The notes under the pieces are model-generated. The model had not been told where the DNA came from and made no database searches. It was given only the letters and a program-made list of their open reading frames with translations. A stretch of 64,000 bases of DNA from Glaucostegus cemiculus (lineage: Eukaryota): contig CDPCPM010000370.1 in NCBI GenBank assembly GCA_976551045.1, forward strand, positions 1,364,001-1,428,000. The letters run 5' to 3'. Both the position numbers and the translations under genes were made by a program. Every line of letters starts with the position of its first letter. The first letter of the stretch is position 1. This document shows positions 1,246 through 57,728 of the stretch, piece by piece.

Positions 1246-3084
1246 CACATAAAATTTGGTTCCAGAGAAGGCAAAAAAATCATTTTCCATTGTCAGGAAT
1301 CTAAATGGGTGTGAAAATCATATCACTGTGGTCTACACGTCAGTCACAGTTAGATTTACTGGTTCTCTTGATCTTGGCAAGAAAATCAGCTGGACAAGGA
1401 TTTCAAAGTGCAACTAACGACTCGACTGAGCATCACTGTGCACTGAGTTTCCGCACAGCTTCGTAGTACAAACCAGGGAGGGCGCTGTACAAGATGTGCA
1501 AGATGATCGAAACACAGCGACAGGGATCAAAGTGAGAGTCGAATACAGACTTCAGTGTGATGTATGTTGCAGAGGCCAGAGAAACAGAGGGAGAGATAAA
1601 AAGAGAAAGCGATAAATAGGGATGAAGCGCGAGAGAGAATTGGGACCTCTGGACACAGTGCGGCATGCGGAACGGAGGGTACGGACACATATTCCACACC
1701 AGTGCATAGCCCATTGCCAGAGCAGAAATGAGAAGTTCTTTTCATTTATTCTGCATGTTTCACTCCGTCCTGGAGATGCAGAGTGAATTCAAAATAATTA
1801 AATAAATTACAATGCAGATAACATTGTGACGTCCGAGCGGTGGCGGGAAGGTTGCGTCCATTCGCTCCCACAAACAAAAATGTGGCAAGAAGCAGATAAC
1901 AAACTTCAAGATGTTAATTCAAAATTCGATGTTGCCGGCACGTTCCAGATAATGGGCCTGCTTTTGGTTGTATCTATTCCTTGCACATCCACACCCCACC
2001 GCTGTACTGTCTTCATCTGTTCTGATCTCTTGCAGATCTACAGTCTTAACATCTCCAATAGAACAGTTCGTTTAGCTGCATTCGCTCTCATCATTCGAAT
2101 GACTGGCCAAACTGTGCATTGATCCCTGTCTCTCTTTCATCTCTCATCATGTACCTTGATTAAAGAAAACATTTGCACAATGAAATTCCTTACGGATATG
2201 TGTCGCTGATCAGTTGTTGGTTACAAATGTCAATTCTGCAGTCATCTCTTTAATCAAGGACTGAGACTTGAAATATGTTGATGATTCTCCGCCGTTATTT
2301 TTACTTGACTATCGCAGTTGGAACATTCCCCGGACTTATGTAAACTGAGCGGGCACAGAAACATTTATCTTTTCAATTTAACAAGTGCTTCTGGAGAAAC
2401 CCGCGACAGAATCATTGAAGGTTCCATGAAAAGGGAGATTGGACGGTGTTAGCCAATGACTGAACAAGAGCTGTAAGTAATATATTACATGGAAGTAAAT
2501 GTCGATGATTAATGTTTATGTACGACTCATCGTTAGCAGCAACCGCATTGAACAAATTTAAACTTGAGAATTTGTTTGAACTCTTGTTCAACTGTTCCTT
2601 TGTCCTTCAGGTGCTCAGCTGGTGCATATGCAAGGTGCGGCCAACCTAATCAGTGTGCTCACATGGGATCGAACGCTTATTTGTTCAAAATTTCGTCATG
2701 GATGTCCGCGGGGAGGTGATCTCACTTTCTCATGAATCTTGCAGTTTCAATATAAATATGCTGCTGCTTTCCTTGAATCGCTGACTATTGTGAGATTTAT
2801 ACTTCATTATTGTGGCCGCTTGACGGAGAAATGGGTTGGATGTGGAACGTATCCATTGAATATCTTTATTACCCACTTCTGGCAGCAATAGGGGTACCCG
2901 GTAGGTCACTGTCCCATTCTCATGTGCCTGAAGCATGCCGGGTTTCGTGTTAGGAAACTGCAGTGTTGAAGGTACAGCGAAAAAGGTGCGGGAAAATCTC
3001 GGAAAGCCAGGTTGCATCTGTGGGTTGTGAGAGTGGGAGGAGCGAAGCTGCTTTTCTATGTAAGTTAATTGCATCTGATGCAAG

Positions 3085-10357: not shown

Positions 10358-10857
10358 ATGTGCTTACTATACTTTCTGCTCACAGCGGCCGTTCTCTTAA
10401 CCGGTGGGTACACCAGGTGCACATAACTGCAAAGGACAATTGTATGAATTGCGAAGTTACTGAGTCTCGGAATAGCCACTGCCAGGGGCAGATTCTAGGG
10501 TACAGGCACTCTGACATGACAGGATTTGATTTTATCTCTTTCTGGACACTTGCAGGACATCGTAGGGGAGTCGCCATTTCACAGTCATCGGCTGCAGCCA
10601 CAATGATAGAAGGGGACGTCGATCAGTTACTCTTCATTTATGCAGCTACAAATACTGCCAGTCGGTATCTGTACTGGTACAGTTAATACCACGGAGGAGT
10701 CGTGGAATTTCTGCTTCGCAATAACTATTACAGAGAGAAGAAGGAAAAAATGCAGAGAGCCGGTTCTCAATCACCCTTGATGATTCAAAACGAACCGTCT
10801 GAGCCTGTCTGAAACCCAGTTTGGAGAATCGGCGTCGTATTACTGCACCCTGAATCC
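10358..10857 (+). pseudogene. TCR V alpha/delta pseudogene, family A (leader 10358-10403, V exon 10556-10857)
   Basis: Leader MCLLYFLLTAAVLLT|gtgggt; V exon GHRRGVAISQSS..YLYWYS*YHGGVVEFLL..SRFSITLDDSKRT..SETQFGESASYYCTLNP; first Cys lost, stop codon and frameshifts. Confidence 0.85.
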
Positions 10858-10910: not shown

Positions 10911-10949
10911 GGTTTTTGTGCAGGGACTGTCATGTTCCCTATCACTGTG
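10911..10949 (-). promoter_or_regulatory. Consensus 23-RSS
   Basis: Minus strand CACAGTG + 23 nt + ACAAAAACC. Confidence 0.95.
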
Positions 10950-23850: not shown

Positions 23851-24384
23851 AGTTTTTGTACAGGCTCAAGCCCAGTCAGTATCTCTGTGGTCTCAGGGCG
23901 CAAAATATGTGGCACCGTCTCCAAGTTGTGTTTCAGACACATTCAGCAGGACGATTTGACTCTTGTGATCAAGTGTGGCTGAGAATCGATTCGCTGGATT
24001 TCTCTCCTGGTTGTGGCTATATTGGCTTTTGTGCAACAGAAACTCAATGGAACCGTGAGAATACTGACGATACCAGAATAAGTTATGTAGTTACAGTACA
24101 ATTGGTCATTGTCCCCTTCCTGCACTGTGACTGCCGCAGGTGTCTGTGAAACGGAGTCTCCCCGAGTGTGTCCTGCAACAAACGGAGCGATATTAAATCA
24201 AGCAATGTCATGGAACTGTGCCAATCCCTTGGAATATGTTGCGCCCTTGTCCCATTTCGATGCCGAATGAACTGACTGTTGAAATGTAAATGCTGTCACA
24301 ATCGTGTGCCCTTCGTGTTGCGCACTTAGTGAACTCACTGATTAAGAGAGCTGCCGCGAGACTCAATGAATAAACACCAGTCAT
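23851..24384 (-). pseudogene. TCR V pseudogene, family A paralog (leader 24384-24339, V exon 24171-23890, RSS 23889-23851)
   Basis: MTGVYSLSLAAALLI|gtgagt; DSVSQTPAAVTVQEGDNDQLYCNY/LFWYRQYSHGSIEFLL..NRFSATLDHKSQIVLLNVSETQLGDGATYF/CALR with several frameshifts; CACAGAG-23-ACAAAAACT. Confidence 0.88.
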
Positions 24385-32614: not shown

Positions 32615-33065
32615 ATGGAAATCTTGCTGGTTTTCACTGCGTCCGTCTGCTTACACCGTGAGTACCGTTCAGATACTTAAACATAAAACTGCACTAGTCC
32701 ATTCTGAAGTTCAAACATTGTCCGTATTTGGCCTGGTGCAAGCATTTCCCATTCATCTCCGCCCTGTGCTTAATTTCCAGTGTCTTTCTGTCGGTCGGTG
32801 ACCCAGTCCCCGATGATAGTGACCAGGGAGGAGTGTCAGTCACTCACCATCAAATGCCGTTTTCAGAGCGGTTTGGCAGATAAATTCCGGACTGGTCATT
32901 TCTTCAAACAGACGCAGCCCGGGGCAGAGTGGCAGCCGATCTCTCGGGGGGGACGGTTTGTTACGTCGACAAATAAAGCAAAAAATACCTTCACGCTTGA
33001 AATTCAGAATCTGAGAGTTGCAGACAGCGTCACCTATTACTGTCAGGCCGAGTACACGTGGAAAA
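32615..33065 (+). CDS. NAR-TCR (NTCR) V segment, VNAR-like (leader 32615-32657, V exon 32781-33065)
   Basis: MEILLVFTASVCLH|gtgagt; LSFCRSVTQSPMIVTREECQSLTIKC..FFKQTQPGAEWQPISRGGRFVTSTNKAKNTFTLEIQNLRVADSVTYYCQAEYTWK. CDR2 region is deleted as in IgNAR V (ISKGGRYVETVN..SFSLRI); extra FR1 Cys at 32834. Confidence 0.88.
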
Positions 33066-33103
33066 CACAGTGATGGACCAAGGCTCGCCTCGGTACAAAA
33101 ACT
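33066..33103 (+). promoter_or_regulatory. RSS with 22-nt spacer
   Basis: CACAGTG + 22 nt + ACAAAAACT. Confidence 0.9.
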
Positions 33104-33430
33104 CTCACTGCAGATTTTCCCACAACTGACGGGGGAAAGTGAACCTTCCGGTGAACCCCTCGCTCCATCTGCCCCTGCGCTGAGTTAAAACAGGATTGGA
33201 TCATTGCACATTATACACTGGGTTTTCTCACTGCCTGGAATGCACGGATCGTAGTCGCTTTTCTCGAGTCTGCTGTCAGTGAACGAAAATTGAAAATGAC
33301 CAATCCGACTTCCTACTCCCAATTCTAGATGCTGTTGCTGCAGATCGGAAATTTCACCGGCTGGCTTTTAACTTCTGCGCGCACGTCTCGCTGAGAGCAC
33401 GCAAATTTGAAAATGACATGAAACACCGTG

Positions 33431-33501
33431 TGGGATTGGATATTTCGGAGGGGGTATTTACTATATTTCTGGAACTGGCTCTGCGGTAACTGTCACATCT
33501 G
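33431..33501 (+). CDS. NAR-TCR J segment with D-like 5' extension (possible germline DJ join)
   Basis: Heptamer CACCGTG at 33424-33430; frame GIGYFGGGIYYISGTGSAVTVTS; phase-1 donor G|GTAAGT at 33501/2. Confidence 0.8.
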
Positions 33502-34836
33502 GTAAGTATCTGAAAATTTCTACTTTTCTCCCGCTGTCCCGGGTAATATTCTGTGTAATTTAACAACAGGACTGAACGACATCGATCTCCTTCAAATAGA
33601 AAGAGGCCTGATTGCGAAATTGTTTATTGCAAAGTGGCTCTGAAGCGATCCGGGCTGAAGGAATCACGTCTCGGTTTGAATCCAGAGAGAGGATATGCGA
33701 GGCGCCCTAGGAGCAGACGGATTGGGGATGGTGATAGACAATTAATAGTGGTCTCGCTAGCGACATCCGCGTCACCGAAAAGGAATACACGTGAAAAAAT
33801 GCACCGAGTGAAGGGGTGTAGACTACGAAGAGGGGCAATGACTAATTCACGGCGTCAGCTATCTGATATTTCCTGCAGTTGTTGTCGAAGCGTGGGAGAG
33901 AGATTTTGGTGTCGGCGCTGTTTACGGAGCAATCAGATTATCTGCAGGTGTGTGGGGATTGTCCTGCGGAGACCTATTTTGTCGGATGGGTCCACACGCC
34001 CTCGGTGTTTGAAGACTGAAAAGTAATCTATTTGCTACTCAGAAGGACGACAGAAGGAGATTGACAGGAGGGATGCTGAGCTGCGAGTGAGTCTGAATCC
34101 CCTGGGAAAACCGTAGAGTGGAACCCAGCCGACTCCTGACAGATTGTCGTACCTGTTATCGGAAGGTAAAATATGAACCGCAAACAGCACAAAATCGAGC
34201 CATATAGGTATCAAAAAGAAAGAACTGTAAATAATTGATATGAAAATAAAATTAATAAACACCCGTCTCAATTTGTGCAGAACGGGAATAAGATCTTTTA
34301 TTCCGGGTTGTGACAAAGTGCTGACCGCCGTTCCGCAGACCTTCAGTGATGTTGAATCTCACTCCTTGACCGTGGAATCTTGCCATGTAATGGACAATAT
34401 CCAAAAATGGACACATTTATGGAAAGCTCATCTATTTCTCAGAAGGAACGTACTGTTCAAATATTTATTCTAATATGTCTTTTGCAGAAGAAACATAAAA
34501 GACAACGGGATTTCTGGAGAACAGGGAAGGATAACTTGACGGGCCTGGATGCTGGCTCTTTGATTTTTCTCCACTGTTATTCTGCAATGCCTTGATTAAT
34601 TCTCATTTTCTTACAAATTTCTTCATTTTCCCTTTCATAATCACAGTCCCAGACGTCCTGTGGCAGTTTTCTCCCCCACCGCAGCAAGTCGCTGAAATAA
34701 TTACAAAGAGAAATTAGGAAAATTTGCATCGATTTTAAATGAAGAATTTTTTGCGAAACCGAAGTCTATTCCTGCTGTGACACTGACTTCGCTAAATTAA
34801 CTAAAATAATCATGATTTCTCATTTTCATTCTGTAG

Positions 34837-35138
34837 GTACAATTTCCTCGCAGTCCCAGAGATTTCAATATTCTGCCGGTGACACCGTCACCTTAAGCTG
34901 TGAATATTCCGGGTTCTGTCCGTACACAATCCATTGGTATCTGCAATTACCAGGACAGGCTCCGAAATTCCTGCTCCAGAGGCACACTTCAGGAGAGCAA
35001 GATAAGGAAAACGTGCCCGGAAGACTGATTACTGGTTCTCTCGATTCCAGCAAAAAACTCAGCCAGTTAACGATCTCCAAAGTACAACTGAACGACTCGG
35101 CTGTGTATTACTGTACAATGAGTCCTCGCACAGCACTG
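34837..35138 (+). CDS. Leaderless supporting TCR V delta of NAR-TCR
   Basis: Acceptor cattctgtAG; GTISSQSQRFQYSAGDTVTLSCEYSGFCPYTIHWYLQLPGQAPKFLL..DSAVYYCTMSPRTAL; extra CDR1 Cys at 34917; no leader exon found upstream; in frame with the J donor. Confidence 0.88.
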
Positions 35139-35315
35139 CACAGTCACATAGAGTACGGCGAGAGCCGCACAAAAACCTCAGTGTTGTGGATTACAAACAC
35201 ACAGCAGTGCAGAGCGTGGAGAGCTGTTCAAAAACCAAGGCGTGGTAAGGTACAGACACTCGGCGCAACAGAGCACGGAGAGAGCTGCACAACATCCATG
35301 GTGTGGTGGGGATTT
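35139..35315 (+). repeat. 23-RSS (35139-35177) plus two diverged tandem copies, period 59 bp
   Basis: CACAGTC-23-ACAAAAACC; CACACAG-23-TCAAAAACC (35198-35236); CACTCGG-25-ACAACATCC (35257-35297); shared gag.acgg.gagagc.gc spacer core. Confidence 0.8.
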
Positions 35316-55050: not shown

Positions 55051-55442
55051 TCATTGACAAGAATTGACAGTGTCCATCAGAACAAGGGAAACATTTACAA
55101 AACTGGGTTTACCGCTGGACCAATTGACTGTTCTAGCGATGGTCTTCATGGGGAAGGTTTCGTGCCCCACCACACAGGAGAAAGAAGCGCCGCTGGCCCA
55201 ATGCTCTGCCCCGACGGATAACAGGCTGAACATGAAGAAAGAGGTGTTGCCGTTCTCCGCCTGCACCTCGGTGTTCATATAGTTGCGCGAATCTATTGGC
55301 TTGTCATCGACCGTCCACATGACAAAGATCCGGCGAGGAGAGAAACCTCTCACTAAGCAGGTGAGGGCGACGGATCTCTGAGCGGAGACATCCTCTGTCG
55401 GCGGAAGGAGGACAGAGATGGACGGTTCTCGAGGATGTACCA
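55051..55442 (-). CDS. IGHM: IgM CH4 plus secretory tailpiece
   Basis: [42 protein letters not shown]|GTAAAC (membrane-form donor at 55113/2), then [19 protein letters not shown] with NVS glycan site and penultimate Cys. Confidence 0.96.
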
Positions 55443-56413
55443 CTGCAGAACAATTGGGAGAATATTTATTACAGCGGGAATTAACGACACGAGAAGCTGA
55501 TAGATTCAGAATTGAAGGAAATGTAATTTGGGCAAAATATTAAATGTATTACATTTCAAGTTTTTGAATGATCTCTGTTTCTCAGTTCTGGAATGTGAAG
55601 ACGGGGTGGAGAGATTTGATTGTTTCCAATGCAAGATAGAAGGTTTGTAAGAATGTGTTACATGAACCGAAGAATGAGATTATTCCCTCCCCCTCATCAA
55701 TGCAGGTGTTGATGCCACAAGGTCGCCTGCTGCCACTTTTATCAAATATCGCAATTGCATTTCTTGTCTGGGCCGCTTGTCTCTCTCAGGTGTCAATATC
55801 CCCTGAGGTAAATTTTATCAGAGCCCCAACTGTTTGTTCGTGGAACCACCACTGTAGTTGCCTGCGTGTTTAATTTTGGACTATGCACCAACGCTTCAGG
55901 AAATGAAATTTCAAAAATGTAGTTGATGGAAATCTAAAATAAAGCCAGACACTGCCGCAGAGGCTCTGTATGCCAGACTCCGCGTGTGAAAACGAAAAAC
56001 AGAGTTAACATTTCAGGTCGTAGACTCTGCTTGATAAGTCGTAAAGACGAAAAAAGAAACAATGTATTTGAACTTGCAAAAATGGTGGCAAATGGATATA
56101 TTGGAGAAAGTGAATCTAAAGTTGGGAATTCGGAGAGTGAGAACATAAACAACGGGAAAAATCAACAAATTCCCGTCTGATTTGTCTGGCTTTGGCTTGC
56201 TGCACTGTTATAACAAGGACTAAGGATAAGCCGAAGAACATCCCGGACTATGTCTGAACAGAATACAGACACGGAGTAGATATCTAGTATTCCACCTTCA
56301 GATGACCTATTTCAGATATCCCATAACTGCAGCTTCATTATAGATTTTCAGGTAACTCGCTTTCGCTGTCTATTTCAGAACTAGTCATTGAACTGCAAGT
56401 GATACTGACTCAG

Positions 56414-57168: not shown

Positions 57169-57417
57169 CTGAGTCAAATGAACATAAAACCAAGCTTCAA
57201 CGGCAAAAACAGCAATGCAATATTTATCCTCCGAGCTCTAAGTAGAGACAAGATCGCTTCCTGGCACCAGAAAACGGTTGTGACCACGATCCATCTCTGA
57301 CTAGAGAACATCACCCATGCAAGGTCGCGGGTTGTCCCAATGTCAGTGAAGTTCTAACTTCGACTGAAGTCGGCACTCACAGTGAGACTTGTGGGTTTCC
57401 TTGCATGCGTCTCTGAC

Positions 57418-57728
57418 CTTGAGAGATGCTGATGTTTCGGCTCTGCGTGTCAATTTTGTGAGTGACCTAGCAGGTATAGACTGAACCACTGAACCATTCT
57501 GCGGCGGAGAATGTCACCTGACTCATTGCAGAGAAGTTCCCGTTCACCTCAAAGGGGAAGAGGTGACGATGCCCGAATTCAGGGTCTGTCCATTCTTCAG
57601 CCAGGTCACGGTCAGTTGCGCCGGACGGAATTCGGTGATGGAACACACGGCGGTCACTTTTCTGCTTCTGTTTATTTCTTCCAGGGAATTCACGGTGATA
57701 AAGACGATTGGATGATGTACCACAAGAT
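57418..57728 (-). pseudogene. IGHM: IgM CH2 exon, disrupted
   Basis: 311 nt, not a multiple of 3. DLVVHHPIV..AVCSITEFRPAQLTVTWLKNG..VTSS, 1-nt deletion at ~57555, then FEVNGNFSAMSQVT..EWFSGSVYTC*VTH with TAG at 57469-57467. Confidence 0.92.

Follow-up and report, generated by a model that had tools for sequence, protein, structure and literature searches.

Cartilaginous fish have a TCR-delta that rearranges twice (NAR-TCR), reportedly described by Criscitiello in 2006, and a cassette of this kind lies in the 64,000-nt stretch of Glaucostegus cemiculus DNA that was analysed here as a whole (the window; part of contig CDPCPM010000370.1, hereafter C370). The question raised by this locus is how much of the rearrangement is left to the T cell and how much has already taken place in the genome. 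The D and J segments of the window cassette are already fused in the genome. We consider it very likely that this joint was made by RAG in the germ line, whether or not the cassette is used, and likely that it is such a joint within a cassette that can still be used.

Layout and family of the cassette

The features of the cassette are listed in Table 1. A sequence-only reading of this DNA had described a leader, a VNAR-like V without CDR2 and with an RSS, a J with a phase-1 donor, and a V-delta exon with a phase-matched acceptor and its own 23-RSS. All of these elements were present where they had been placed, except that the "J", whose exon and donor stand, proved to be a fused D-J without a J-type 23-RSS. 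One extra Cys per V domain and open frames in the NAR V, the J-frame exon, and the supporting V, which the same reading had noted, were likewise found. Between the Trp position and Cys104, the NAR V measures 48 aa and the supporting V 60 aa, indicating that the NAR V has no CDR2. No leader had been noted for the supporting V, and at the DNA level no leader-like exon was found between the J donor and this exon (33502-34790 scanned): the best hydropathy was 0.32, and that of the true NAR leader was 2.42. Across the window, the leader-exon scan also returned candidates upstream of three ordinary V segments. The leader, both V frames, the D-J frame, four splice sites, the V RSS, and the supporting-V RSS are intact, and near-consensus 22/23-RSSs (≤1 mismatch) occurred four times in the window but in none of 100 shuffles.

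Table 1. Coordinates of the cassette features (window positions unless a contig is named) and of a fully joined locus
Feature	Coordinates	Strand	Description
Leader exon	32615..32657	+	43 nt = 14 codons + 1 nt; phase-1 GT donor at 32658
NAR-type V exon	32781..33065	+	Open frame, without CDR2
NAR-type V landmarks	32834, 32855, 32900, 33041		FR1 extra Cys, Cys23, Phe at the Trp position, Cys104
V RSS	33066..33103	+	CACAGTG-22-ACAAAAACT; 22-nt spacer, near consensus
V-D spacer	33104..33401	.	Homologous to V-D spacers of split paralogs
D 5' RSS	33402..33430	-	Heptamer 33424-33430, 12/13-nt spacer, degenerate nonamer
Fused D-J exon	33431..33501	+	71 nt, open in J frame; phase-1 donor (GTAAGT) at 33502
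D-J exon, D and J parts	~33431-33440; 33451-33501		D core; J, trimmed by ~7 nt
D-J exon, middle	33441-33450		10 nt; diverged D end and/or N nucleotides
J to supporting-V intron	33502..34836	+	1335 nt; acceptor at 34836
Leaderless supporting V-delta exon	34837..35138	+	Open, in phase with J; CDR1 extra Cys 34917
Supporting-V 23-RSS	35139..35177	+	CACAGTC-23-ACAAAAACC; heptamer one mismatch, nonamer perfect
Stacked second RSS	35200..35236	+	21-nt spacer, probably decayed
L053, open V-D-J locus	L053:467-2430; G000:C370 ~1350.2-1352.1 kb		12-14 kb before window start, 46 kb upstream of cassette

The coding end of the supporting V is 5 nt longer than that of most paralogs, and the Pristis ortholog P0001 has an identical read-through peptide. 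A 10-nt insertion in the spacer of the supporting-V RSS was considered and rejected, because comparison with the paralogs resolved it into the longer coding end and a normal 23-nt spacer. A second RSS-like repeat, with traces of a third, lies about 61 nt behind the supporting-V RSS (35200-35300 in the window) and is seen in most paralogs; signals homologous to the stacked RSS are present behind most paralogous supporting Vs, and in several of them the second signal is nearer to the consensus than the first.

Judged by its sequence, the window cassette is an NAR-TCR. The available sections of PMC1845163 give as marks of the NAR V a leader, a Cys in its a-b loop, and absence of the canonical Trp, and as marks of the supporting V the lack of a leader and a Cys in CDR1. 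All of these marks are present in the window cassette, and its domains cluster with NAR-TCR sequences, so that the earlier assignment to this family is upheld. The tree, a comparison to which that assignment had pointed, comprised 76 rows (36 NAR V, 32 supporting V, and 8 ordinary V); it excluded sequences containing stops, a single frameshifted V, and unparsed domains (3 of the 24 NAR V and 7 of the 24 supporting V of the species' own genome). The NAR V clade received support of 100/99 and the supporting V clade 94/92, and both were apart from the ordinary V segments. The extra FR1 Cys occurred in 35 of 36 NAR V rows and the CDR1 Cys in all 32 supporting V rows. The Phe at the Trp position, which had been singled out beforehand, is indeed present, but it is not peculiar to this copy: Trp occurred in none of the 36 NAR V rows, making its absence a family trait.

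Both window domains paired with a Pristis model (P0001; LOC127576463, XP_051882915.1), a corrected automatic gene model, at 100/99 in the tree, suggesting that it is the likely ortholog; the identities of the two domains are 87% and 83%. The predicted structure of P0001 (pLDDT 66.9, pTM 0.43) has two Ig domains. The great white shark gene LOC121270138 (P0050), labelled NARTCR in the available part of table S1 of PMC12227049, shows 62% and 58% domain identity. Among full-length single-domain PDB entries, the NAR V matched VNARs best (E 5.6e-15 and up); the entries ranked above these were two multi-domain engineered antibodies, placed there solely by summed partial matches. No record named NAR-TCR appeared in protein database searches with the cassette proteins. 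Three Mustelus gene models (P0030, P0032, and P0035) fuse an NAR V, a supporting V, a J, and a constant region as one chain and are named "TCR alpha chain-like"; throughout the protein database, NAR-TCRs are unnamed or misnamed.

The cassette shares with known NAR-TCRs a leader-bearing IgNAR-like V, a leaderless supporting V-delta with a CDR1 Cys, and a dispersed position among TCR alpha/delta V segments. It differs from them in that the tip exon of the known genes is said to arise through a VDJ rearrangement of its own, whereas in the window copy D and J are fused and a single join is needed. The IgNAR-type clusters on contig C132, which are 36-39% identical to the window NAR V, are distinct: the Trp is retained, the FR1 Cys is absent, and a C exon of their own lies downstream, where the window cassette has the supporting V.

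Fused D and J at the window locus

The cassette had at first been taken for a standard one with split V, D, and J segments. This did not hold, since its D has already been joined to its J. Comparison with the paralogs showed that a free D, the D 3' RSS, the D-J spacer, and the J 23-RSS are all absent from the window cassette; within 33431-33501 there is no RSS sequence, and the J is shortened by about 7 nt. Relative to the split cassettes, about 390 nt, including both inner signals, have been removed at the coding borders. The distance from Cys104 to the J donor is 461 nt in the window, whereas 19 of the 20 split paralogs measured have 846-903 nt; in the twentieth (L042) it is 665 nt, reflecting an ordinary internal deletion.

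The segments flanking the lost region identify what has been retained. The window spacer matches the V-D spacers of 11 of 20 split paralogs and the D-J spacers of none of 19. The heptamer at 33424 occupies the place of the paralogs' D 5' heptamer and belongs to the same RSS family; the whole D 5' RSS scores 28.5 bits (leave-one-out family range 15.6-45.1, n = 20), and five of the 20 paralogs score lower. This heptamer is followed directly by the 71 nt that run up to the J donor, compared with a D of 13-16 nt and a J of 58-60 nt in most paralogs. The exon opens with 10 nt that fit the D profile in register (per-position sum of about 8 bits) and closes with 51 nt that match the J profile. Over the full 15 nt, D-likeness is low, at 2.7 bits (family range 2.1-13.4), a value reached by 1.4% of background 15-mers. 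Across the split cassettes, the nonamer of the D 5' RSS is non-consensus; it is best read with a 13-nt spacer and is kept in most of the 20 paralogs.

The same loss could have arisen from an ordinary deletion between D and J without RAG, given that about 200 nt are missing from the D-J spacer of L042 and that ten junction nucleotides of the window exon are assigned to neither D nor J. The L042 deletion, however, leaves the heptamers in place, whereas that of the window removes both exactly and keeps the D and J coding sequence. When deletions of 300-500 nt between the V RSS and the J donor were considered in 19 cassettes, 0.3% started in D and ended in the first 15 nt of J, a chance figure that ignores ascertainment and selection. 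Together with the three kinds of RAG product seen at five loci (see below), this makes a non-RAG deletion very improbable.

It is very improbable that the joint is an assembly error or is somatic, stemming from a clone of lymphocytes in the tissue that was sequenced, even though only a single sample bears on the point. A short-read contig of 303 nt from run X1 spans 33379-33682 without substitutions and with one 1-nt gap outside the joint, and no alternative joint or loose end is listed at the joint in this contig, which argues against an assembly error. Runs X1 and X2 derive from one sample, perhaps the assembly's own, and the bridging contig is therefore not a second individual. No near-identical or unjoined second copy of the window V was present in the assembly. 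A polyclonal somatic joint, moreover, would not be expected to reach the consensus, and even less so at five loci, among them the visibly old L074.

A germline RAG joint thus remains the preferred reading of the window D-J. At J codon 3, the window has Gly, whereas 15 of 19 split Js and P0001 have Trp. The J of P0001 cannot be used to date the joint, because its Trp is no less compatible with an unjoined J than with a joined one.

Joined and split cassettes along the contig

DNA and protein searches of the species' own genome identified at least 28 NAR V loci on C370, between 0.45 and 2.2 Mb. At 22 of these 28 loci the segments are split, in the order V-22RSS, spacer, 12/13RSS-D-12RSS, and 23RSS-J, with a D-J spacer of 372-412 nt where measured. 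At one locus (L073), the V and its RSS alone are recognisable. The remaining five (the window cassette, L050, L052, L053, and L074) are shorter and are cut at coding borders, the joined siblings of the window cassette comprising one D-J, two V-D, and one open V-D-J.

In L050 (C370 ~780.5 kb) and L052 (C370 ~1905 kb), the V is followed directly by a D-type 12-RSS facing a J with a 23-RSS, indicating that V and D are joined. The L050 spacer scores 12.0 on the D profile and -20.0 on the V profile, and that of L052 scores 6.2 and -8.9. The L052 spacer also aligns to D-J spacers (2 matches); the L050 spacer gave no match when aligned to paralog spacers. The V, J, and supporting V of L050 are open.

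At L053, V, D, and J form one complete exon; the locus also has a leader, an open frame that continues through the supporting V, and a 23-RSS, and its sequence makes it the strongest candidate for an invariant tip domain. Its leader intron of 508 nt contains a repeat, and another extra Cys lies near CDR1 of its supporting V. The run X2 contig over positions 1298-1500 of this locus begins too close to the V-side junction to be counted as bridging it. L074 (C370 ~2215 kb, minus strand) is a second, independent D-J-joined cassette with a different joint. It is diverged and has decayed: the leader ATG was not found, and the J frame is interrupted by a stop in its D part. In the tree, from which L074 is missing, L050, the sister loci L052 and L053, and the window V are placed on different branches among the split cassettes, suggesting that several joining events have occurred. 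A supporting V at G000:C370:768587-768914 (-), L071, has no NAR V in the 9 kb upstream, as judged by a motif scan.

Proposed working, precedents, and neighbouring segments

The arrangement suggests that D and J were fused by RAG in the germ line of an ancestor and that a T cell would need one V-to-DJ join to make the antibody-like tip. In this join, RAG would pair the V 22-RSS with the D 12/13-RSS, deleting about 365 nt; diversity would then arise at one junction alone, and the C-terminal part of CDR3 would be fixed. The D 5' RSS is the only partner remaining in the cassette for the V RSS. Its nonamer, at 4.2 bits, is the second lowest in comparison with the 20 split paralogs (2.0-15.8), and V-to-DJ joining may for this reason be inefficient. 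In a second step, RAG would pair the supporting-V 23-RSS with the 12-RSS of a D-delta close to the one constant region found. Like 18 of the 24 loci of the first search, the cassette has plus orientation, and the constant region gave a single match on the minus strand (C370:196-198 kb); with this opposite orientation and a distance of 1.17 Mb, the supporting-V-to-D join would be an inversion. The scan for D and J segments near the constant region, which covered 170-290 kb of C370, detected upstream of it 10 J segments (a 12-RSS was called for 8) and one D with 12/23 RSSs at 229.9 kb. We take this constant region to be C-delta on account of the upstream D and of its transmembrane motif; C-alpha was not located. 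Splicing would finally give a chain of leader, NAR V(DJ), supporting V(D)J, and C-delta, paired with TCR-gamma, in which the two extra cysteines probably tie the V domains together through a putative interdomain disulfide, as hypothesised in the literature.

On this sequence evidence, it is plausible that the window cassette is functional. Alternatively, the joint could be a germline RAG product whose NAR tip is now seldom if ever used, a relic of stray RAG activity with frames that have not yet decayed, as might be expected from the weak nonamer on the sole 12-type signal and from the fate of the sibling D-J join L074, which is a pseudogene. We regard this as unlikely, considering that the leader, the V and D-J frames, the splice sites, and the V and supporting-V signals have stayed intact and that both domains have remained so similar to those of the Pristis ortholog. 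The D 5' RSS, for its part, retains the heptamer's CAC and, in the nonamer, the central AAA, and over the whole RSS the five split paralogs mentioned above score lower. A germline joint in a usable cassette is therefore preferred.

The joining of gene segments by RAG in germ cells has been documented for shark Ig genes (PMC2193156, in the sections available), and shark and skate Ig genes joined in the germline include VD-J, VD-DJ, VDJ, and VJ forms (excerpts of PMC2193156 and PMC5192425). These genes resemble the NAR-TCR cassettes in that the RSSs are excised exactly, the coding ends are trimmed, joined and split paralogs are mixed, and the events are independent; they differ in being B-cell genes, whereas the window cassette is a TCR in which D and J are joined and V is free. 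What sets the window cassette apart from known NAR-TCRs is its pre-joined D and J. Such germline joining is well known in the antibody genes of sharks, and few descriptions of it exist for TCRs. In the passages available, germline joining is called peculiar to Ig genes (PMC5192425), marsupial TCR-mu is named as the only germline-joined TCR case (PMC7615758), and a germline V-J that is expressed is described for newt TRD (PMC12698447). The Vmu-j of marsupial TCR-mu and the newt TRD V-J are likewise TCR-delta-derived chains with an inherited joint, and TCR-mu also has two V domains. In TCR-mu, however, the second (supporting) V carries the complete joint, which probably arose by retrotransposition, and diversity remains in the tip, whereas in the window cassette the tip is partly joined, the introns are kept, and the supporting V has yet to rearrange.

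Within the available part of table S1 of PMC12227049, the great white shark gene LOC121270133 is labelled "NARTCR V(gj)V(gi)V". We read "gj" as germline-joined, given "IgM (gj)" in the same table. On this reading, specialists have tagged an NAR-TCR as germline-joined; the tag is, however, a bare label on an automatic model, without junction or RSS analysis in the text available, and implies full joining rather than a D-J join. Joined NAR-TCR junctions or a D-J join were not described in the literature searched, as far as its accessible text goes, and primary papers and their supplements may mention them.

With 5 of 28 loci joined, one tentative possibility is that RAG has repeatedly recombined NAR-TCR cassettes in the germ line of this ray lineage and that the intact products were kept for semi-fixed or fixed antibody-like gamma-delta tips, forming an innate-like, inherited repertoire that would probably serve early life. 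The intact joined cassettes in such a repertoire would be the window D-J and the open V-D-J of L053. Three kinds of RAG joint in one TCR locus would extend germ-cell recombination beyond the shark Ig clusters. The question of the NAR-TCR ligand also becomes testable, since expressing and screening a tip that is fixed or half-fixed requires no knowledge of any somatic junction.

The remainder of the window contains further V segments and some Ig sequence. Ordinary TCR V segments with 22/23-RSSs occur in both orientations at 10949(-), 15249(+), 23889(-), 25720(-), and 43010(-), that at 23889 being frameshifted. A V relic without a clear RSS is situated near 10832(+), head to head with the V at 10949, and a short supporting-V fragment is found at 1356-1459 (+). 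Ig heavy-chain constant exons are located on the minus strand at 55054-55539 and about 57200-57600, inside the TCR V array; one encodes a terminal domain whose secretory-type tail ends in Cys-Gln-stop, and the exon upstream of it contains a stop. Their position within the array fits the IgH-TCR linkage reported in the available part of PMC12227049.
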